Source: Escherichia coli
Lineage (GTDB): Bacteria; Pseudomonadota; Gammaproteobacteria; Enterobacterales; Enterobacteriaceae
NCBI RefSeq assembly: GCF_001677475.2
Contig: NZ_CP015229.1
Direction: 5' to 3' (one strand)
Length of the DNA stretch: 64,000 bases
The notes under the pieces were generated by a model, which worked only from the letters and a program-made list of their open reading frames with translations, ran no database searches and was not told the origin of the DNA. The translations under genes and the position numbers were made by a program. Shown here in pieces: positions 1 to 36,170 of the stretch; position 1 is the first letter of the stretch; every line of letters starts with the position of its first letter.

Positions 1-910
1 GGGCGAAGTCGGCGCGAATATCGTGGCTACGCATTTTGTCTTCCAGGAAACGGGTTACCGCCAGCGATGCGCCGCCGGTGCCGGTTTGCATGGAGAAACC
101 TTCTTTGAAGTAGCCAGAGTTGACAATCACATCCGCAGCGCTACGGGCAATAAGCAGTTCGCGCGGGTTAGTGGTCATACGGGTTGCACCAGCGCCGATT
201 TTTGCAGCATCGCCAACGCGATCAACTTTGACGATCAGATCAACCTGATCTTGCTCAATGCTTGCCGGATTATGCGGATAAGGCAGCAGTTCTTCGGTAA
301 GCATCACAACCTGTTTTGCGTTGTCGGCATCAACCATTGCATAGCCGAGGGAGCCGCAGCAGGCTTTACCGGTGTAGCCGTTGGCATTACCGAATTCATC
401 ACAGGACGGGACGCCGAGGAAAGCCACGTCGATATTCAGTTCGCCGCTCTGTACCAGATGCACACGTCCGCCGTGAGAGTGGATTTGCACCGGTTCCGCC
501 AGCAGACCACGGGAGATCTCTTCCGCCAGTGGACCGCGCAGGCCGGAGGTATAAATGCGGGTGACCACACCCTGACGAATATGTTCTACCAGCGGTGCAT
601 GGCAGTCGCTCAAAGAGCTGGACGCCAGGGTCAGGTTTTTAAAGCCCATCTTCGCGATGACGTCCATCACCATATTGACGGTCAGGTCACCGCCACGGAA
701 AGCGTGGTGGAAGGAGACGGTCATGCCGTCCTTTAAACCAGAACGACGAATAGCGTCTTCCAGGTTGGCGCACAGTTTGCGATCGCGCGCTTTTTCAGCC
801 TGGTAGGTTTGCTTTGGCGAGTTCTGGAAAGCGGCAAGATCGCATTCAGCGCGACGATTCCAGGCCGCTACCCGTTCTTGTCGTTGAGATTGTTCAATTT
901 TCTGCGTCAT
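1..910 (-). CDS. citF: citrate lyase alpha subunit (citrate CoA-transferase), N-terminal part only; gene runs off the window start
   Basis: Reverse-complement of 908..910 is ATG and the translation reads MTQKIEQSQRQERVAAWNRRAECDLAAFQ..., matching remembered CitF; no stop before position 1. Sits directly downstream of citE. Confidence 0.85.
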   Translation of the reverse strand, partial: MTQKIEQSQRQERVAAWNRRAECDLAAFQNSPKQTYQAEKARDRKLCANLEDAIRRSGLKDGMTVSFHHAFRGGDLTVNMVMDVIAKMGFKNLTLASSSLSDCHAPLVEHIRQGVVTRIYTSGLRGPLAEEISRGLLAEPVQIHSHGGRVHLVQSGELNIDVAFLGVPSCDEFGNANGYTGKACCGSLGYAMVDADNAKQVVMLTEELLPYPHNPASIEQDQVDLIVKVDRVGDAAKIGAGATRMTTNPRELLIARSAADVIVNSGYFKEGFSMQTGTGGASLAVTRFLEDKMRSHDIRADFA

Positions 911-920
911 TTTGATTGCC

Positions 921-1829
921 TTATTCTTCGCGGATGCCGGAAAGTTCTGCGCGGGAGAGCACCAGACGGGCACGATCGATAACCGGACCGTCAACCATCT
1001 TGCCGTTCAGGGAAACCACACCGAGGCCTTCGCGAGCGGCGGCTTCAGCGGCTTCTACGACGCGGCGTGCGTGATCCACTTCTTTCTGGGTTGGTGCGTA
1101 GAGGTTGTGGAGCAGATCAATCTGACGCGGGTTGATCAGCGATTTGCCGTCAAAGCCCAGCTGTTTGATGTGGGCGGCTTCTTGCAGGAATCCGGCTTCG
1201 TTGTTGGCGTCGGAATAGACGGTATCGAACGCCTGGATACCGGCAGAGCGCGCGGCTTGCAAAATGGAGCAGCGAGCGAACAGCAGTTCCGTACCTTCCG
1301 GTGAGCGTTCAGTGCGCAGGTTACGCACGTAGTCTTCCGCGCCCAGCGCGATACCGATTAAACGTTCAGATGCGTGAGCGATTTCTACCGTGCGGGTAAT
1401 ACCCAGCGGAGATTCAATCGCCGCCAGCAGGCCGGTGCTGCCGGGTTCACGACCACAGGCTTTTTCGATACGCAGGATCTCTTTTTCGATATCCAGCACA
1501 TCCTGAGCGGTATCGGTTTTCGGCAGACGCACAACGTCCGCACCACCGCGAACGACGGCTTCCAGGTCGTTAACACCCCATTCGGAATCCAGCGCGTTTA
1601 CACGCACAATGGTTTCAATATCGCGATACAGCGGATGTTGCAGCGCGTGGTAAACCATGCGGCGGGCGGTGTCTTTTTCACGCAATGCTACGGAGTCTTC
1701 GAGGTCAAACATCAGGGCATCAGCCGGGTAGATGAAGGAGTTGCTGACCATCGCGGCATTGGCACCAGGCACAAACAACATGCTGCGGCGGGTGCGAGTT
1801 TTACGTTGTTGCAGCGAAGCGGAAATCAT
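921..1829 (-). CDS. citE: citrate lyase beta subunit (citryl-CoA lyase)
   Basis: ORF 921..1844 (-); product [27 protein letters not shown]... Start placed at the internal ATG to give 302 aa; 4-nt ATGA overlap with citD stop. Confidence 0.9.
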
Positions 1830-2122
1830 TGGCAATCCTCCCATGGCAGAGCCGGGATACCGCTGGCGCGTGCCAGCAGGGCTTCCAGTCGTGCACGTAA
1901 AATGCAGTCCAGTGCGCCTTTGTCATCGACATTCAGCTGTACGCCGCGCACGTTGTAGCGGGCGAGAACGTCCAGAATGGTGGTGCGAATGGCATCGCCA
2001 AACTGTTTCTCAACGCTGCTGTTGATTTGCAGGTCGATATCCTGCGTATCGAGTGGGGCGATGCGTATCATCACATCCCCAGACTCAAGGGTGCCTGCAA
2101 CGGCGGGCTGGTTTATTTTCAT
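1826..2122 (-). CDS. citD: citrate lyase acyl carrier protein (gamma subunit)
   Basis: 98-aa [27 protein letters not shown]..., between citC and citE. Confidence 0.9.
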
Positions 2123-2136
2123 TTTTCACCTGTTTC

Positions 2137-3195
2137 TCATGCGGGGGTCTTTTGACGAGCTGCCGCGTCCTGGCGGGAGTGCTCAAGCAGGTTCTGCAAA
2201 TAATGCAGCGTGACTGCAGGGACCAGCGGCGCGATAGCCGTGAGATCGTTTTTCGCCAGCAGTTGACGTACCCGGGAAGCGGATATCGGCATCTCCTGGT
2301 AACGCAGCCGCTCAATTTCAACCAGTTCGATGGGCGGTGCGGAGATAGTCGGCGTTTCCAGCCAGTAGCGCATATCCTGGTTGTACTGGGCGGTAACGCG
2401 ACAAAAGGGTTCAGTACCGACAAAGCGGTGAGTTACACCCAGCGCGGGAGCGAGGTACTGACGGAAAATCTTCAGATCAATTTCGGTGTAACAATGGTTA
2501 ATGACGCTCTGTTCTTTAATGAAGTAGCAAGGGAACGTGGCGCGGGAGATGATGTATTCGGAGCCGCGATGCACAGTCAGGCGTGGAATATCGGCGGTGC
2601 CTTTTAACACCAGATCCAGCCGGTCTTCATAGGGGAAGCGTGAAGAATCTTCTTTGACTAAAAACAGATGCAACCAGTCGCACTGTGCTGCAGCCTGTTG
2701 AATCAGATAACGGTGACCATTCGTAAAGGGATTGGCGTTCATCACAATGCAGCCAATCTTATTCCCTGGATGACGAAATTTTTTCAGCGATTCGGCATAG
2801 CGTTTCAGTCGCGTGGCGCTGTTTTCCATCAGCACCATCACGCCGGGTACACTAGTCAGCGTGGAAAAACCGCACTGGCGGAACAGCGCCTCGTATTCGG
2901 TTTTGGTATAAATAAATAGATGCGTGCTGTGCCGCTCATAGGCGAGGTTAATTAGCTCGGTGGCTAATGTCAGCGCCAGTCCTTCACCGCGAACGGATTC
3001 ACTGATAGCAACGCATTTAATAATATTTCCGGCAATTCCACCGCACGCGATAAGCTTTTCATCGCGGGTTACGGTAATAAATACTTCGACTGTGGTGTCA
3101 ACGCTCAAATCATTTTCATGCAGGAATTGGGCGATTTCCGCCATTTTTTTATTTTCTGAACGTTTTACACGGGTGAAAATATCATTGCCGAACAT
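2137..3195 (-). CDS. citC: [citrate (pro-3S)-lyase] ligase
   Basis: ORF 2137..3282 (-); start placed at internal ATG (3193..3195) giving 352 aa beginning MFGNDIFTRVKRSENKKMAEIAQF... Confidence 0.85.
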   Translation of the reverse strand: MFGNDIFTRVKRSENKKMAEIAQFLHENDLSVDTTVEVFITVTRDEKLIACGGIAGNIIKCVAISESVRGEGLALTLATELINLAYERHSTHLFIYTKTEYEALFRQCGFSTLTSVPGVMVLMENSATRLKRYAESLKKFRHPGNKIGCIVMNANPFTNGHRYLIQQAAAQCDWLHLFLVKEDSSRFPYEDRLDLVLKGTADIPRLTVHRGSEYIISRATFPCYFIKEQSVINHCYTEIDLKIFRQYLAPALGVTHRFVGTEPFCRVTAQYNQDMRYWLETPTISAPPIELVEIERLRYQEMPISASRVRQLLAKNDLTAIAPLVPAVTLHYLQNLLEHSRQDAAARQKTPA

Positions 3196-3574
3196 AATAA
3201 ATAGTATCCTGAAGGTGCATGTTGTTATCGATTTGCAACAAATGTTGTTCGATGTTGCAAACTGATAACCTTTTATTTTCACTTGGGAGAAAGGGGGGCG
3301 ATCGAGGTATATCTTTTTCTCCTTTCGCTATACATCCTAAGGAGTATTGCAGCGTGAAATTTTGATTTATTTCACATAGAGTTAGTGGTTTTTTATTTAT
3401 TTAATGGTTTTAAGTTTTTTAATTAATGTAATTACGAAATGACCCGCAGGTTTAAGTGATTTAATTGATTTAATGAATAAAATTTGCCACGATTATATTT
3501 AATATCTATGTATTTTGATTCAACATTTTAATTACATTCGTCAAAGAGGCTCGGGACAACCCGCAAGGAAAACA
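3196..3574. promoter_or_regulatory. divergent citC / dpiB control region, very AT-rich with tandem GATTTAAT motifs
   Basis: 379-bp non-coding spacer between divergently oriented citC and dpiB; AT-rich by eye, contains tgatttaattgatttaatgaat around 3456..3480. Confidence 0.4.
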
Positions 3575-5233
3575 ATGTTGCAGCTTAACGAGAATAAACA
3601 GTTTGCATTTTTCCAAAGACTGGCATTTCCGCTGCGTATCTTTTTGCTGATTCTGGTGTTCTCAATATTTGTCATTGCAGCCCTGGCGCAATATTTTACG
3701 GCCAGTTTTGAGGACTATTTAACGCTTCATGTACGCGACATGGCAATGAATCAGGCAAAAATTATTGCTTCTAATGACAGTATCATCAGCGCAGTGAAAA
3801 CGCGTGACTACAAGAGGCTGGCGACCATCGCTGACAAATTACAAAGAGATACTGATTTCGATTATGTGGTGATTGGCGATCGGCACTCGATTCGTCTTTA
3901 CCATCCTAATCCGGAGAAAATTGGTTATCCTATGCAGTTCACCAAACCGGGCGCGCTGGAGAAAGGGGAGAGCTACTTCATCACCGGGAAAGGGTCAATT
4001 GGCATGGCAATGCGTGCCAAAACGCCAATCTTTGATGACGATGGAAAAGTCATCGGCGTGGTGTCGATTGGCTACCTGGTGAGTAAAATCGATAGCTGGC
4101 GTGCTGAGTTTTTATTACCGATGGCAGGTGTGTTTGTCGTGCTGTTAGGGATTCTGATGTTGCTATCGTGGTTCCTGGCCGCGCATATCCGTCGGCAGAT
4201 GATGGGCATGGAGCCAAAGCAAATCGCACGCGTGGTCCGTCAGCAAGAGGCGCTGTTTAGTTCGGTTTATGAAGGGCTGATTGCGGTGGATCCGCACGGT
4301 TACATTACCGCCATCAATCGTAACGCAAGAAAGATGCTGGGGCTGAGTTCCCCTGGACGACAATGGTTGGGTAAACCCATTGCTGAAGTGGTCAGGCCTG
4401 CCGATTTCTTTACCGAACAGATTGATGAAAAACGTCAGGATGTGGTGGCTAACTTTAACGGCCTGAGCGTTATTGCCAATCGGGAAGCTATTCGTTCAGG
4501 TGATGATTTGCTGGGGGCCATTATCAGCTTTCGCAGTAAAGACGAAATTTCCACCCTCAATGCGCAACTGACGCAAATTAAACAATACGTCGAGAGCCTG
4601 CGCACATTGCGACACGAGCATCTCAATTGGATGTCGACGCTCAATGGTCTGTTGCAGATGAAAGAGTATGATCGCGTGCTGGCGATGGTGCAGGGGGAGT
4701 CTCAGGCCCAGCAACAGCTTATTGACAGCCTGCGCGAGGCGTTTGCCGATCGCCAGGTGGCGGGGCTGCTTTTTGGTAAAGTGCAGCGCGCCCGCGAACT
4801 GGGGCTAAAAATGATCATCGTCCCCGGCAGCCAGCTTTCGCAACTGCCGCCAGGACTGGATAGCACCGAGTTTGCCGCCATTGTTGGCAATTTACTTGAT
4901 AACGCCTTCGAAGCCAGCCTGCGTAGCGATGAAGGAAACAAGATCGTTGAATTATTCCTCAGCGATGAAGGCGATGATGTGGTGATTGAAGTCGCCGATC
5001 AGGGCTGCGGCGTTCCAGAGTCTCTACGAGACAAAATATTTGAGCAGGGTGTCAGTACGCGTGCTGACGAGCCCGGCGAACATGGCATTGGGTTGTACTT
5101 GATTGCCAGCTACGTAACGCGCTGCGGTGGTGTTATCACTCTCGAAGATAATGATCCCTGCGGTACCTTATTTTCAATCTATATTCCGAAAGTGAAACCT
5201 AATGACAGCTCCATTAACCCTATTGATCGTTGA
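3575..5233 (+). CDS. dpiB: sensor histidine kinase of the DpiBA (CitAB) two-component system
   Basis: ORF 3515..5233; start at ATG 3575 preceded by AAGGAA; 552 aa MLQLNENKQFAFFQRLAFPL... with two TM segments and an HATPase C-terminus. Confidence 0.9.
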   Translation: MLQLNENKQFAFFQRLAFPLRIFLLILVFSIFVIAALAQYFTASFEDYLTLHVRDMAMNQAKIIASNDSIISAVKTRDYKRLATIADKLQRDTDFDYVVIGDRHSIRLYHPNPEKIGYPMQFTKPGALEKGESYFITGKGSIGMAMRAKTPIFDDDGKVIGVVSIGYLVSKIDSWRAEFLLPMAGVFVVLLGILMLLSWFLAAHIRRQMMGMEPKQIARVVRQQEALFSSVYEGLIAVDPHGYITAINRNARKMLGLSSPGRQWLGKPIAEVVRPADFFTEQIDEKRQDVVANFNGLSVIANREAIRSGDDLLGAIISFRSKDEISTLNAQLTQIKQYVESLRTLRHEHLNWMSTLNGLLQMKEYDRVLAMVQGESQAQQQLIDSLREAFADRQVAGLLFGKVQRARELGLKMIIVPGSQLSQLPPGLDSTEFAAIVGNLLDNAFEASLRSDEGNKIVELFLSDEGDDVVIEVADQGCGVPESLRDKIFEQGVSTRADEPGEHGIGLYLIASYVTRCGGVITLEDNDPCGTLFSIYIPKVKPNDSSINPIDR

Positions 5234-5922: not shown

Positions 5923-7308
5923 TTACTTGCCTGTGACCACTGCTGCCGTTCCTGGCACCATCAGCTCTGTAGCAACGATAACAATCACTAGCCCAACAAG
6001 CACCGGCACCGAGGTGCGTTTTACGACTTCAAATGGTGAGATTTTCGCCATCCCGGCAACCGCAACGACTACGCCAGAAACGGGTGATAGGGTACGACCC
6101 AGGTTTGACGCCTGCAGCATCGGGATAGTCAAATACGCCGGGTTAATGCCGGAAGAGTGCGCCAGTTTCGGGATCATCTCAACAAACGCATAAAACGGCG
6201 CATTGCCTGAACCGGTCGTGACTGCCGCCAGCATTGTCAGAATCACCAATACCAGCATCAGGATGATACTCGCCGAACCAAACGAGGTAGCAATAGAAAT
6301 CAGACTTTGAATAAAGCCGATGGTGCTAAGCCCCTGAGCGAATACCCCAGCGGCAACCAGCAGCATCACCACGTTAGCAAACGCATCTGCCATCCCGCGA
6401 TAAGCCACTTCCAGACCAGAGAAAACTTTCTGGGTATTAAAGCTGCGGATGAACTCCAGAATGGAGGCAATCAGCATACAAATCACCAGAATAGTGATGA
6501 TGTGTAATTGCGGACCCCATTTGCCGTCAAAAATCAGTACACCGATGATAGGCGTGAACGGCAAAATGGCATAAAACGCAGGAGCAGTGGTGGTGATTTC
6601 ACTGACATCTAACATTTCATGAGAGATGTGCTCTTTTTTATCCAGATAACGTTGCCAGAAGAAGTGGGCGATCGCCATGCCGATAATTGCAGCAATTGAG
6701 ATAGGCAGCGTCGTTTTGAAGGCGAAGTCAATCAGCGACATTTCGGAAGCCTGCGCCGCCAGCACCACATCCCCTGAAGTCGGTGCGAGAATAATCGCCG
6801 CCGGGGAGGCACAAATGGCAGCTGCTGCGCCACGACTGATACCAACGTTTACCATCACCGGAAACAGGGTTGCCATCAGCAAAACACCCAGACCGGTCGC
6901 GGAAGAGACGGCCAGAGACATCAGACAGGCGACAAAATAGGCGGCAATCATCAGCAGGTAAGGGGAGTTAATATACTGCAATGGTTTTGACGCCAGCTTG
7001 ACCACCATATCATTCGCGCCGATATGGGTCATGTAAGCGGCAAAGCCACACAGCATCATAATCATCATGCCGAGGTCGCCGCCGCGGCTCATTAGCAATA
7101 TTTTAACGTATTCAACGATATCCGTGGCGCTGTAGCCTGTTGAAGCCTGGCTGGACGGTAACACTTTGTGCCCCATAATGGCACTGATAATCAGCAATAA
7201 CAGGCCACCGACAAATAACACGCCAGTGGCGGAATACCCTTTAATGATGTAGCGAGCTACACCCACAATAACCACAACCCCAATAAGGAGTTCAATGAAT
7301 GTCAGCAT
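5923..7308 (-). CDS. dcuC: anaerobic C4-dicarboxylate transporter
   Basis: 461-aa polytopic membrane ORF MLTFIELLIGVVVIVGVARYIIKG..., uninterrupted. Confidence 0.9.
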   Translation of the reverse strand: MLTFIELLIGVVVIVGVARYIIKGYSATGVLFVGGLLLLIISAIMGHKVLPSSQASTGYSATDIVEYVKILLMSRGGDLGMMIMMLCGFAAYMTHIGANDMVVKLASKPLQYINSPYLLMIAAYFVACLMSLAVSSATGLGVLLMATLFPVMVNVGISRGAAAAICASPAAIILAPTSGDVVLAAQASEMSLIDFAFKTTLPISIAAIIGMAIAHFFWQRYLDKKEHISHEMLDVSEITTTAPAFYAILPFTPIIGVLIFDGKWGPQLHIITILVICMLIASILEFIRSFNTQKVFSGLEVAYRGMADAFANVVMLLVAAGVFAQGLSTIGFIQSLISIATSFGSASIILMLVLVILTMLAAVTTGSGNAPFYAFVEMIPKLAHSSGINPAYLTIPMLQASNLGRTLSPVSGVVVAVAGMAKISPFEVVKRTSVPVLVGLVIVIVATELMVPGTAAVVTGK

Positions 7309-7896
7309 AATTTTTCCTGTCTCCAGGCCCCAAAGTAAATAATAAAAAATTCCTAAAACTTAAGGAAAAAATATGCCCAATAAATTGGCGATGAATGCTG
7401 ATTAAAATCAAGAAAAACTGCCATTAACACATTGAAGTTACTGTTTTTATACATAGATAACAAAACACATATTTAGCGGTTGGTAATTATCACATAATAA
7501 TGTGTGTAAATTGATGGCGGATTGATGCAAATTTGTTAATAGCAATGGTGTTAGCTGCGATTGCGTGCTCAAAAAATAATCTGTAATGAGCATGGGTTGA
7601 CGATATATAATATATTTTTCGTTAAGATTCTTTTTGTATGTTGTTAAAAAATAAAGTAATTTTATCCTGGTTGTATTTTGTTATCAGAACCGACTTGCTT
7701 TTTATTTAATGACTATTCCCATCACAGAAAACGAAGTATCATCTTAAATCGATGCGCGGAAATATTTAACTTGAACAAGCGGAAATAAATAGAGCAGCTA
7801 TTCAGATTATTCTTTATATTGGGGCTATTAAGGTTATGTTAATTGTAGCTTTGCTATGCTAGTAGTAGATTTTTGATAAATGTTTTATGGTCACAA

Positions 7897-8457
7897 ATGA
7901 ACGTGAGTAAGTATGTCGCTATCTTTTCCTTTGTTTTTATTCAGTTAATCAGCGTTGGTAAAGTTTTTGCTAACGCAGATGAGTGGATGACAACGTTTGG
8001 AGAAAATATTACACAAACCTGGCAACAGCCTGAACATTATGATTTATATATTCCTGCCATCACCTGGCATGCTCGTTTCGCTTACGACAAAGAAAAAACC
8101 GATCGCTATAACGAGCGACCGTGGGGTGGCGGTTTTGGTCAGTCGCGATGGGATGAAAAAGGAAACTGGCATGGCCTGTATGCCATGGCATTTAAGGACT
8201 CGTGGAACAAATGGGAACCGATTGCCGGATACGGATGGGAAAGTACCTGGCGACCGCTGGCGGATGAAAATTTTCATTTAGGACTGGGATTCACCGCTGG
8301 CGTAACGGCACGCGATAACTGGAATTACATCCCTCTCCCGGTTCTACTGCCATTGGCCTCTGTGGGTTATGGTCCAGTGACTTTTCAGATGACCTACATT
8401 CCGGGTACCTATAACAATGGCAATGTGTACTTTGCCTGGATGCGCTTTCAGTTTTGA
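7897..8457 (+). CDS. pagP: lipid A palmitoyltransferase PagP (CrcA)
   Basis: ORF 7873..8457; start placed at ATG 7897 giving 186 aa [25 protein letters not shown]... with signal peptide. Confidence 0.9.
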
Positions 8458-8631
8458 GACAAATGAAATTTTAGTAAACTCTTTAAAATCAATGGGTAAA
8501 ATAATTAACATCAAAAATAACGCGACTTTTATCACTTTTTAGTAAAGTTGCACTGGACAAAGCGTACCACAATTGGTGTACTGGTAACCGACACAGCATT
8601 TGTGTCTATTTTTCATGTAAAGGTAATTTTG

Positions 8632-8841
8632 ATGTCTAAGATTAAAGGTAACGTTAAGTGGTTTAATGAGTCCAAAGGATTCGGTTTCATTACTCCGGAA
8701 GACGGCAGCAAAGACGTGTTCGTACACTTCTCTGCAATCCAGACTAATGGTTTTAAAACTCTTGCTGAAGGTCAGCGCGTAGAGTTCGAAATCACTAACG
8801 GTGCCAAAGGCCCTTCTGCTGCAAACGTAATCGCTCTGTAA
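8632..8841 (+). CDS. cspE: cold-shock-domain protein CspE
   Basis: 69-aa ORF from ATG 8632: [33 protein letters not shown]... (RNP1/RNP2 motifs). Confidence 0.95.
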
Positions 8842-8860
8842 GATACGTCAGCAAGAATTC

Positions 8861-8890
8861 AAAACCCGCTTAATCAGCGGGTTTTTTTTG
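8861..8890. terminator. Rho-independent terminator between convergent cspE and crcB
   Basis: Hairpin cccgct/agcggg (8865..8881) followed by a T8 run; A-run on the other side. Confidence 0.7.
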
Positions 8891-8894
8891 GTCT

Positions 8895-9278
8895 TTAGTG
8901 TGCGGTTGAGGCTGAAAACAGCCAGAATGCCAGTGCGGTCATGGCAAAAGAGCCCAGAAGGTTGACGAAAACGTTCAGTAATGCCCAGCCAAAGCGACCC
9001 TCTTGTAACAAAAACACCACTTCTGCCGAAAATGTTGAGAAGGTTGTTAGACCGCCACAAAATCCGGTGGTGATTAATACTTTCCACACTGGATCAATGT
9101 TCGTCATCCTGCTGAACCAGGCGAATCCCATTCCTATGATGAATGCCCCAATCAGGTTTGCTGTCAGCGTCCCCAACGGAATCGCCTGATGCAGTGGGTT
9201 AAATCGCATACTTAACAGCCATCTCGCCACGCTTCCCGTACCACCGCCAATAAAAACTGCTAAAAGAAGTTGTAACAC
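8895..9278 (-). CDS. crcB: fluoride channel CrcB/FluC
   Basis: 127-aa membrane [26 protein letters not shown]... Confidence 0.9.
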
Positions 9279-22949: not shown

Positions 22950-23527
22950 CAGTTACCCAGCGTAGTAGAGACGCGTGCAGGCGTTGCTGCAGTATCCGTT
23001 GTTTTCGACGTATCTTCGTCGGAACGGATATCCGCAGCGCGGATGCTTGGCAGCTTACGTATCAGCTGTTCGGCAGCACGGTCGTACATCTCTTGAATGA
23101 TCATGCTTTGCTCATTATCTTTCGCTAACGCCATTTGCGGGTTATCGAAGAACGAACGGAAGACTTTGGCGCTAATCGGGTAGATGTCACGGCCAGGGAT
23201 CAATACTGACGCGCTGACAGTCATCACCATTTGATATTCAGCGGTTTGACCATTACGGAAAACTGAAGCGGTATCCTGGGAGATTGATACAGCACCCAAA
23301 CGCAGGGATGGAACATCCTTACGCGTGGTTTCTTTATCAAGCAACTCAACACCGTTCAGACGCAACTGATTACGCACCGCACGGCTTAACGGCCCGTTCG
23401 GGTCGCCAGAGTCCAGGATCATGACCTTCATAGTGGAAGGAACCTGCGTGGTATCACGCAGATGCCAGCCACACCCGGCGGTGATTAACACCGCCAGAGA
23501 TAACAACAATGTTGCCAGATATCGCAC
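22949..23527 (-). CDS. lptE: LPS-assembly lipoprotein LptE
   Basis: 192-aa [31 protein letters not shown]... (lipobox ITAGC). Confidence 0.95.
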
Positions 23528-33019: not shown

Positions 33020-33043
33020 GCCGATGCCGGATGCAGCGTTTAT
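33020..33043. repeat. left half of a REP-like palindromic unit split by the IS insertion
   Basis: gccgatgccggatgcagcgtttat; its inverted partner gccgcatccggcagccg lies at 34480..34496 on the far side of the IS. Confidence 0.6.
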
Positions 33044-33566
33044 TGAACTGCACCCCAAATGTTGGACATAATCTGACATCTGAAGGTGCAGTTTATGAAA
33101 CATTCATTTGAAGTAAAACTTGCCGCTGTAAATCATTACCTGGCTGGTCATGCAGGCATCATTTCTACGGCAAAACTCTTTCAACTTTCTCACACCAGCC
33201 TCTCACACTGGATTAATCTTTTTCTTCTTCACGGTCCTCGGGCACTGGATTGCAGACACAAGCGTAGCTATTCTCCTGAAGATAAACTTTGCGTGGTTCT
33301 TTATGCTCTCGGGCATTCTGAGTCTCTACCCCGGGTAGCTGCCCGGTTTAACATTCCCAGCCACAACACGGTTAAAAACTGGATAAAAGGCTACCGCAAA
33401 TCTGGTAATGAGGCCTTTATCAGGCGCAGGAAGGAGAAAAGCATGACCCGTTCTGATGATACCCATGAAAACGAGGCAAACATGACGCCGGAAGAGATGA
33501 AGAATGAGCTGCGTTATCTTCGCGCAGAAAATGCATATCTGAAAGCCATGCAGGAGCATCTCCTGG

Positions 33567-34477
<911 letters not shown>

Positions 34478-34499: not shown

Positions 34500-36170
34500 T
34501 TAAGGGATCTCAATAGCCAAATAATCGCTCGCCCGTCGCCGAACTTCATCGACGCGGGCCATATCGTTTGACTGCAACGCCGCATCAAAATCGGTGATCA
34601 CCCGGCCGATCTCTTCTCGCTCGTCACCCAGCGCCCGCGCCCACAACTCTTCCAGTTTTGCTTTAAAGGTACGGTTGATGAGCATATCGCGCGGATAAAT
34701 TTTCAATGCGGATAACCGCGTCCGACTCTCTTCAATCTGCTGTGCGCTCAATGTTACAGGACTGTGATTAATGACTCTGGACTTAACGCTGCCGTCTTCC
34801 AGAAGCACGTCAACTTCAAGCAACCCGTTGATATCATAACTAAAGCGAATATCAATCGACTGATAAGCCCCGGTTTTCTTCAACGGCACATCGAAGGATT
34901 CCACCAGAATGTTATTTTTAACTTTGTGGTTTTCTCCCTGATAGACGTTAACCGTAATTGAATCCTGTTCCGGGTGCATGGTCGAGTAAGTTTCTACACG
35001 CGACACCGGTACAGTGGTGTTTCGTTCAATAATCGGCGAGAAAATGCCGGAAACGCCCTGGCGGTTAACTTCAACACCCAACGAGTAAGGGCAAATATCA
35101 GTGAGGATCACCTCTTCAATATCTTCACTGCGTAAGCGGCAGGCGGCCTGGATTGCTGCGCCCAGCGCGACAATGGTGCTCGGGTCGTAACTTTGATATG
35201 GTAATTTGCCAAACAGACGTACGGCGATTCGCTGCACCAGCGGCATTTGTGATGCGCCGCCAACCAGCACCAGACTGTCGATTTGACTTGGCTTCAGACG
35301 TGCATCGCGCAACGCCTGTTCAATCGGTACTCGCAAGCGATTGAGCAGCGGCAACCACAAATCTTCCAGTTCGTTTTCGTAAAATTCGCACTTACGCGTT
35401 TCTTCCTGATACTGCCAGCTAATTTGCAGCGGTAATTGATTGCCGCATTTTGCCGCTTCCACGCTGGTGTACAGGGCTGCCAGCTCACTTTCGTTGAGCA
35501 TGTTTTTAGCCACTGCGGCGCGTTTTAAAACTTCATCCACCAGCATATGAGTAAAATCTTCGCCGCCAAGAAAGTTGTCGCCAGCGGAGGCGTGAACTTC
35601 AATCACCGGCGTGGCGTATTCGAGCACCGTGACGTCAAACGTGCCGCCACCGAGATCAAAAACCAGCGAGCGGGTATTTTGTTGCGTATGCAGGCCATAT
35701 GCCATCGCAGCTGCTGTGGGTTCATTAATTAAGCGTACCGCATTTAACCCGGCTAACTCCGCTGCTAAACGGGTATGCTTGCGTTGTTCATCGCTGAAAT
35801 AAGCCGGAACGGAGATCACCACATCTTTAATCGGACGTTGCAGAAATTCTTCGGCATCTTCTTTTAATGAGCGTAATACCAAAGAGGACAGTTCTGGCGC
35901 GTTAAATGTATCGCTGCCTAACCGCCAGTTGGTATTACTGCCCATTGCACGTTTAAATAACGCTGCCGTTTTATCCGGATGCGAAGTGCGCCGTGATACA
36001 GCCGGTTTTCCGACTAAAATATGATTATTTTCATCCATGCTAATTATGGATGGTGTTAAATATTCACCGAACTTATTTGGAATTAATTGCGCGGCACCGT
36101 CTTTCCAGACGGCAATTAAACTATTGGTAGTACCGAGATCGATACCAATGGCGAGTTCTGCATTATCCAT
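34500..36170 (-). CDS. hscC: specialised Hsp70-family chaperone HscC
   Basis: 556-aa ORF MDNAELAIGIDLGTTNSLIAVWKDG... with Hsp70 ATPase signatures (DLGGGTFD). Confidence 0.9.
   Translation of the reverse strand: MDNAELAIGIDLGTTNSLIAVWKDGAAQLIPNKFGEYLTPSIISMDENNHILVGKPAVSRRTSHPDKTAALFKRAMGSNTNWRLGSDTFNAPELSSLVLRSLKEDAEEFLQRPIKDVVISVPAYFSDEQRKHTRLAAELAGLNAVRLINEPTAAAMAYGLHTQQNTRSLVFDLGGGTFDVTVLEYATPVIEVHASAGDNFLGGEDFTHMLVDEVLKRAAVAKNMLNESELAALYTSVEAAKCGNQLPLQISWQYQEETRKCEFYENELEDLWLPLLNRLRVPIEQALRDARLKPSQIDSLVLVGGASQMPLVQRIAVRLFGKLPYQSYDPSTIVALGAAIQAACRLRSEDIEEVILTDICPYSLGVEVNRQGVSGIFSPIIERNTTVPVSRVETYSTMHPEQDSITVNVYQGENHKVKNNILVESFDVPLKKTGAYQSIDIRFSYDINGLLEVDVLLEDGSVKSRVINHSPVTLSAQQIEESRTRLSALKIYPRDMLINRTFKAKLEELWARALGDEREEIGRVITDFDAALQSNDMARVDEVRRRASDYLAIEIP

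Follow-up and report, generated by a model that had tools for sequence, protein, structure and literature searches.

The window, a stretch of 64,000 nucleotides of Escherichia coli DNA, carries dcuC (5923–7308, minus strand) and pagP (7897–8457, plus strand) in divergent orientation, separated by a spacer of 588 bp (7309–7896). Because the two genes diverge, both promoters lie within this spacer. Its GC content is 0.301 (30%), compared to 0.504 for the whole window. A preliminary description of the sequence had singled out the spacer as unusually long and AT-rich and as lacking any open reading frame (ORF) of 60 amino acids or more, and each of these claims is borne out: in the stretch of K-12 MG1655 that matches the window, none of the other intergenic regions of 40 bp or more (41 in all; median 139 bp) is as long as the spacer, and the largest ORF within the spacer spans 48 amino acids. 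The length is thus unusual for its neighbourhood. The K-12 counterpart is identical in length (588 bp, 655,969–656,556) and contains no annotated feature in RefSeq; over 4.8 kb, the window and K-12 MG1655 are 97.7% identical.

To follow the spacer across enterobacteria, loci anchored on PagP were collected from 80 other species, together with the window and two E. coli loci, and the 50 loci with dcuC adjacent and a measurable spacer form the denominator of the motif counts reported here. Spacer length is lineage-specific: 558–588 bp in Escherichia, 411–465 bp in most Citrobacter, 403 bp in Salmonella arizonae, ~437 bp in Enterobacter and Lelliottia, and 281–294 bp in Klebsiella pneumoniae, K. 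spallanzanii and most Raoultella. A few Enterobacter and Kosakonia loci have spacers of 700–1024 bp. By eye, some of the longer Kosakonia and Enterobacter spacers hold ORFs that resemble remnants of RND transporters. A conserved block in the middle of the spacer is separated from pagP by 373 bp in E. coli and by 229–240 bp in Citrobacter and Enterobacter, indicating that the extra sequence specific to Escherichia, ~140 bp, lies within the pagP-upstream half.

The dcuC side of the spacer carries a predicted FNR box, CTGATTAAAATCAA, at 7398–7411, which agrees with the consensus at nine of ten positions (one mismatch). The pattern TTGAT-N4-ATCAA occurs in 45 of the 50 enterobacterial loci (2.7 expected from shuffled sequences), almost always at a distance of 88–100 nt to the dcuC ATG, and forms invariant columns in our cross-genus alignment (A1). 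The FNR-box scan proposed in the preliminary description returned this conserved nine-of-ten site. On the minus strand, a predicted −10 hexamer, CATATT (7370–7375; CACATT in other genera), has its first base at a distance of 29.5 bp to the FNR-box centre, as in class II promoters; a conserved ATGTGCC/ATATGCC block in the alignment is this hexamer, CA(C/T)ATT, read on the dcuC strand. Promoter geometry would place the dcuC start site at ~7363, giving a predicted 5′ untranslated region (UTR) of ~55 nt (7309–7363, minus strand) that includes a Shine-Dalgarno sequence, AGGAAA, as the reverse complement of 7313–7318. For dcuC, Myers et al. reported an FNR ChIP peak at 655,298 and classed the gene as directly activated by FNR, with the entry annotated as ‘TSS not in peak region’. 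The ~100 bp beside dcuC would act as a class II FNR-activated promoter, composed of the box at 7398–7411, the CATATT hexamer and a start near 7363. We take the peak coordinate to be in U00096.2 numbering, and a presumed offset of 778 bp between U00096.2 and U00096.3 then puts the peak at about position 7416 of the window, roughly 11 bp off the centre of the FNR box. A strong Cappable-seq start site immediately upstream of ahpC is in keeping with this offset.

Further from dcuC, three direct repeats with an 11-bp spacing (ATTGATG, ATTGATG and TTTGTTA) were identified at 7510–7541 from sequence and alignment. At their end lies a conserved core, TGATGCAAATTTGTTAA (7523–7539), with the pattern TGATGC-N5-TGTTAA, which was found in 30 of the 50 loci (1.6 expected). 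The distance of this middle block to the dcuC ATG is fixed at ~206–226 nt in most of the 30 loci, its distance to pagP ranges from 229 to 692 nt, and the spacing to dcuC is kept even where 250–450 bp are inserted toward pagP. This combination of a fixed distance to dcuC and a variable distance to pagP argues that the block belongs to dcuC control. Its form, an 11-bp direct repeat, suggests an OmpR-family regulator, and 7523–7539 is probably a candidate binding site for such a factor acting on dcuC. Park et al. reported an ArcA weight-matrix site, without a ChIP peak, in the dcuC/crcA spacer, which makes ArcA the natural and leading candidate, possibly the factor itself. In the arrangement we propose, a direct-repeat block near −165 would travel with dcuC and would probably be bound by a response regulator, with ArcA favoured. 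The dcuC-linked block has not obviously been described before, and represents a modest addition.

On the pagP side, the segment 7746–7802 is nearly invariant within E. coli, contains GCGGAAATA twice, and is unalignable in Citrobacter, Salmonella, Enterobacter and Klebsiella. It is followed on the plus strand by four half-sites phased at 11 bp (AGATTA, TATATT, TATTAA and TGTTAA; 7803–7842) and by the predicted pagP −10 hexamer, TATGCT (7855–7860), which aligns with TATTAT of the S. arizonae locus. TATTAT is the hexamer given for the S1-mapped pagP promoter of S. Typhimurium (Zwir et al. 2012, PMC3335776), and in Salmonella a footprinted PhoP box ends 23 nt upstream of the −10 hexamer, with a second box 126 nt upstream (PMC3335776). 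By homology with Salmonella, pagP transcription would start at ~7867, with a predicted 5′ UTR of ~30 nt (7867–7896, plus strand).

The half-site TATTAA (7826–7831) corresponds by homology to the second half of the PhoP box footprinted in Salmonella and is located 23 nt upstream of TATGCT, and a PhoP-box-like sequence, TATTAAGGTTATGTTAA (7826–7842), ends 12 nt before this hexamer; the spacing at pagP thus agrees with that of PhoP boxes placed 12 or 21–23 nt upstream of −10. The pattern (T/C)GTTAAG-N5-ATTnA is present in 49 of the 50 loci (9.3 expected), mostly ~68–70 nt upstream of the pagP ATG, and a TTCnGATT block lies upstream of the PhoP-like box, ~93 nt from the ATG, in Escherichia, Citrobacter and Salmonella. 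A scan for PhoP boxes, also proposed at the outset, gave a divided answer: the best matches to the direct repeat (T/G)GTTTA-N5-(T/G)GTTTA (7811–7827 and 7826–7842) carry three mismatches each and are of a quality common by chance, whereas their position is the one conserved in 49 of 50 loci. A literature search with the PhoP-box region as a literal sequence returned no match. By homology, PhoP binding at these half-sites is plausible, and the ~95 bp beside pagP would form a PhoP-type promoter with TGTTAA-like half-sites at 7803–7842, the TATGCT hexamer and a start near 7867.

Several published regulatory inputs converge on pagP. An hns mutation raises expression of a pagP-lacZ fusion 18-fold; the induction of pagP in biofilm requires SlyA, and SlyA-like sites have been noted in the promoter region; RcsB and GadE are further inputs, and RcsB, like SlyA, counteracts repression. 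In genomic SELEX (gSELEX) with the sigma-70 RNA polymerase holoenzyme, the spacer is an in vitro binding site that carries an HNS flag in the table, and promoters guessed by the authors fall in the centre of the spacer (e.g., TTAAGA-17-TAAAAA). RpoN and NtrC gSELEX peaks have also been reported in the spacer. As a possible sigma-54 promoter at these peaks, TGGCGGATTGATGCA was considered by eye and rejected, as its GG-to-GC spacing is wrong.

These reports support the earlier suggestion that the spacer contains an H-NS-silenced region, through the 18-fold derepression and the HNS flag, and the composition is that expected of such a region (GC 0.30 vs. 0.50 for the window; 0.28–0.33 with 8–9 A/T tracts in a 187-bp core described below). 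Within the spacer, the H-NS motif TCGATATATT, allowing up to two mismatches, is no more frequent than expected by chance, and the SlyA consensus, allowing up to three, has no match. The evidence for H-NS at pagP is genetic, together with the gSELEX flag, and does not locate binding to the core. In one Cappable-seq data set, no plus-strand start site was recorded between 653,077 and 656,393 (U00096.2), a range that includes the pagP promoter; this silence fits silencing under the growth condition of that study. We propose that the middle ~260 bp (7542–7802), which are very AT-rich and largely Escherichia-specific, may serve as an H-NS binding and silencing platform that holds pagP off and also quiets cryptic RNA-polymerase-binding sequences until SlyA, RcsB or PhoP counteract it. 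The suggestion of multiple operators likewise stands: the multi-genome alignment contains conserved blocks beyond the two core promoters (the TGATGC-N5-TGTTAA and TTCnGATT blocks), whose absence had been named as the outcome that would count against it.

The spacer had also been proposed to hide a small RNA (sRNA) or a small ORF. Support for an RNA gene comes from Shigella flexneri 2a 301, in which Ssr31, an sRNA of ~295 nt, was predicted on the pagP strand of the pagP/dcuC spacer from a promoter-plus-terminator pair and scored ‘Yes’ by RT-PCR, with no Northern blot or 5′ RACE reported (Wang et al. 2016, PMC4782007). If the centre of our spacer encoded the same unannotated sRNA directed toward pagP, the in vitro binding of the holoenzyme could be explained by the guessed TTAAGA-17-TAAAAA promoter, which lies within the core, and the invariance of TTGACG (7597–7602) inside otherwise variable sequence would also be in keeping. 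RT-PCR, however, cannot tell an Ssr31 sRNA from read-through or from an upstream pagP leader, and the features of an RNA gene that we searched for are missing. An Rfam search of 6800–9000 at a permissive threshold gave no credible match in the spacer (none below E = 2.5), its sole real match being the cspA-type 5′ UTR of cspE; both strands of the spacer are free of terminator-like sites; folding revealed no marked structure, the z-scores lying between −2.2 and +2.3; and a promoter scan returned one site, fewer than the 4.1 expected from shuffled sequences. Comparison with the Cappable-seq map, as had been recommended, adds no plus-strand start in the spacer, and RefSeq K-12 annotates nothing there. 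Moreover, the candidate RNA body would coincide with the least conserved part of the spacer, which differs by 10–18% between E. coli lineages and is unalignable outside Escherichia. With Ssr31 as the one result arguing for it, we regard an sRNA in the spacer centre as quite improbable.

A small protein gene is more improbable still, to the point of being largely refuted. The spacer does hold several ORFs of 10–48 codons, and one of them, a ten-codon ORF encoding MPNKLAMNAD (7373–7405, plus strand), follows a strong Shine-Dalgarno sequence. An inverted repeat (I5) was noted at this ORF. The two ends of the ORF consist of the −10 hexamer and the FNR box, and the residues between them are unconserved, for which reasons we judge it a likely by-product of the dcuC promoter. 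It shares with a 33-amino-acid ORF on the minus strand (7353–7454) a conservation limited to the overlap with the FNR box and the −10 hexamer. Among ATG-initiated ORFs of the hypervariable core, none stays open throughout the 11 E. coli alleles compared, and none is shared with E. whittamii or Escherichia sp. E1V33; the K-12 RefSeq record annotates nothing in the spacer. A decayed gene was also considered and set aside: by eye, no likeness to the RND-like ORFs of Kosakonia and Enterobacter is visible in the short ORFs that the E. coli spacer holds.

The spacer differs from that of K-12 by 44 substitutions and no indels (92.5% identity, vs. ~98% in the flanking genes), and the differences cluster in its middle. 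Among the 11 E. coli alleles, diversity peaks at 7573–7771 and reaches 0.166 per site, a value inflated by the choice of alleles for being different. The most variable segment is a core of 187 bp (7559–7745), whose mean pairwise divergence is 0.124, compared to 0.056 at 366 four-fold degenerate sites of dcuC, pagP and cspE (ratio 2.2) and to 0.025 and 0.021 in the spacer to its left and right. Of its 188 alignment columns, 61 are variable and 14 carry three or more bases. Length (186–187 bp), GC content (28–33%) and the number of A/T tracts (8–9) hardly change across all 11 alleles, and invariant islands persist, such as GGTTGACGAT and GACTATTCCCATC.

Core sequences fall into discrete haplotypes 10–18% apart, and across 5,376 complete genomes the identity to each haplotype is bimodal. 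The K-12 type is matched at ≥95% identity by 3,277 genomes, at 90–95% by 88 and at 80–90% by 2,011. The ST131, O157 and PS10-3 types are matched at ≥95% by 1,029, 455 and 44 genomes, respectively, and the core type of the window has six matches listed at 95.0% and none higher (the band count gives one). The K-12, ST131 and O157 types thus account for 61%, 19% and 8.5% of genomes. Between K-12 and O157, 34 of the 187 core positions differ, compared to 4 of the 1386 positions of dcuC and 2 of the 561 of pagP, a mosaic which indicates that the core has a history separate from that of its flanks.

An invertible element was considered for this region. A 14-nt inverted repeat (7456–7469/7672–7685) brackets ~200 bp, and its pairing is broken in 88-3493 and ST131; in the BLAST tables shown, matches to the spacer are colinear, those split by an insertion sequence excepted, with none in inverted orientation, and the candidate was rejected. 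Relative to K-12, the repeat carries one apparent compensatory change.

We infer that the role of the core is architectural. If a silencing platform needs AT-richness and length rather than an exact sequence, the core would be free to diverge, and it would now persist as discrete haplotypes whose exchange or retention does not depend on the genes to either side. A divergence twice that of four-fold sites exceeds simple relaxed constraint for AT-rich DNA, and this excess implies that selection, a local mutation effect or a recombination effect may also act.

On a more adventurous reading, the 187-bp core is a recombining regulatory cassette under diversifying or balancing selection, in which old haplotypes, selectively kept or exchanged by short-tract recombination, tune the H-NS silencing of pagP and set the strength of its silencing and induction. 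Lipid A palmitoylation would then differ by lineage, and so would the inflammatory signal and the resistance to host peptides that depend on it. Such a cassette would account for a core divergence 2.2 times that of four-fold sites, for the 14 multi-allelic sites in 188 columns, for the bimodal K-12 counts (3,277, 88 and 2,011 of 5,376 genomes), for the 34 core differences between K-12 and O157 beside near-identical flanks, and for the preservation of length and composition; PagP, furthermore, acts at the host interface. However, the haplotype frequencies could follow phylogroups, as expected from descent with faster drift, the 11 alleles were chosen to be different, so that their diversity is inflated, and other 187-bp segments of the 64 kb, coding ones, are as diverged from K-12 as the core is (82.4% identity in lptE and 83.4% at 35371–35557). 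What separates the two readings is whether there is selection on pagP control, or weak constraint combined with recombination edges at a poorly homologous patch. We consider a selected cassette unlikely, both in its claim on silencing strength and in its consequence for lipid A, which is equally doubtful. In a weaker variant, the cassette would hold a cryptic promoter or transcript (Ssr31), silenced by H-NS, as a further input to pagP control.

Taken together, the anatomy and conservation pattern observed in this analysis lead us to read the spacer, with a probability of roughly 75%, as a control region shared by two divergent and separately regulated genes, with no additional gene inside it. 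Of the earlier interpretation, the multiple operators and the H-NS silencing are upheld, and the small ORF and the sRNA are not. The readings that are upheld agree with largely published evidence and are nothing categorically new: the spacer is already known and ordinary, its variable core is mildly interesting, and the haplotype structure of that core is a modest addition. The result is of use in three respects. First, it is a clean negative, as a long AT-rich gap in which a gene might seem to hide turns out to be a promoter region that is already known and has multiple inputs. Second, it provides a compact map of constraint, in which the FNR promoter, the dcuC-linked block and the phased PhoP/ArcA-like array are fixed and the core is free to vary. 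Third, the variable core could serve as a convenient natural experiment on how much sequence an H-NS platform needs, and would bear on whether promoter-region haplotypes alter the expression of an outer-membrane enzyme relevant to infection.

Each part of the region can be set beside a known system. The dcuC promoter resembles class II FNR-activated promoters, in which the FNR site is centred at −41.5, in its nine-of-ten box, its 29.5-bp spacing and its cross-genus conservation, as well as in the published FNR ChIP peak and the FNR-dependent expression of dcuC; unlike those members of the class that have a mapped start, its −41.5 position is derived from the hexamer spacing. The pagP promoter resembles that of Salmonella enterica (‘architecture IV’, PMC3335776), with which it shares a homologous −10 hexamer (TATGCT vs. 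TATTAT), the 11-bp phasing, the divergent dcuC and a conserved GTTAAG/ATTAAG half-site 23 nt upstream of −10. It differs in that the E. coli version of the homologous box has a degenerate first half (TATATT) and in that the best candidate box is shifted, to 7826–7842 (12 nt from −10) or 7811–7827; the S. arizonae spacer, moreover, is 185 bp shorter than that of E. coli. Ssr31 of S. flexneri shares the spacer and the strand of pagP, but we found no RNA-gene signature in the spacer of the window, and Ssr31 itself is a prediction accompanied by RT-PCR.

The presumed silencing of pagP is similar to the H-NS silencing and SlyA/PhoP counter-silencing of Salmonella pagC and ugtL and of the E. coli K5 capsule genes and hlyE, with which it has in common AT-rich upstream DNA, strong derepression in hns mutants, a requirement for SlyA and an input from PhoP. 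In contrast to the pagC/ugtL-type systems, pagP is an ancestral core gene located between core genes, not part of a horizontally acquired island. Finally, its pattern places the core among the divergent or ‘switched’ intergenic segments, a class already described with Piggy (Thorpe et al. 2018, PMC5890482). Like those regions, it combines the same flanking genes with discrete, divergent internal variants that do not track the similarity of the flanks; unlike them (PMC5890482), the divergence is confined to a 187-bp core that remains alignable at 82–90% and constant in length.

Searches of Rfam around the 588-bp dcuC-pagP spacer (7309-7896) found a single credible RNA-family match, the cspE 5′ UTR and gene (8531-8889, plus strand), which scores 123 bits against the cspA thermoregulator family (RF01766; gathering score 78). 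A strong Cappable-seq signal, with a score of 431, lies on the plus strand at position 656,590 of the older K-12 genome version (U00096.2), corresponding to approximately 8707 in the window. Given the 778-bp offset between genome versions, which we take to place this position inside cspE, the start site falls ~75 nt within the cspE coding sequence. Weak start sites are also recorded upstream of cspE, at 656,393 and 656,438 (U00096.2).

At the dcuC promoter, a 14-nt inverted repeat with 93% complementarity (7305-7318 / 7363-7376) mirrors the ribosome-binding site of dcuC and thereby gives rise to an AAGGA-N6-ATG arrangement on the plus strand. The ten-codon ORF that follows (7373-7405, plus strand) ends within the FNR box, and we set it aside as a gene, judging it to be a by-product of promoter conservation.

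Divergence from K-12 is also concentrated elsewhere in the 64 kb. When segments of 187 bp, the length of the hypervariable core of the spacer, were compared with K-12, 23181-23367 in lptE (82.4% identity) and 35371-35557 (83.4%) were the most diverged outside that core. The whole of lptE is only 90.2% identical to its K-12 counterpart and holA 95.5%, compared to ~98% for their neighbouring genes, and this stretch of lptE, an LPS-assembly gene, could have been imported or could be evolving fast. Between Escherichia species, pagP is evolving at a much higher rate than the neighbouring dcuC: against E. whittamii or Escherichia sp. E1V33, the PagP protein of the window reaches only 86-88% identity, compared with 97-98% for DcuC.

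The window and K-12 differ further in their insertions. A 1.4-kb insertion relative to K-12 occupies the djlC-hscC interval (~33042-34476) and contains two overlapping ORFs of 176 and 191 aa, whose appearance on visual inspection is that of a two-ORF transposase of the IS3 family. The IS5D copy located between gltI and lnt in K-12 is missing from the window. Insertion sequences also break the dcuC-pagP spacer itself in some strains: in E. coli O18ac:H14 873.10 (locus 2157-4376) it is split by IS3-family and IS1 elements, and in strain X14-3, a BLAST match, it is interrupted by IS1. Large insertions between the dcuC and pagP promoters are tolerated by the spacer. In Kosakonia oryziphila and Enterobacter cloacae the spacer is enlarged to about 900-1024 bp and contains ORFs of 61-129 aa. 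Inspected by eye, these look similar to the membrane segments of efflux pumps of the RND / CusA type, and they are possibly the remains of genes in the dcuC-pagP interval.
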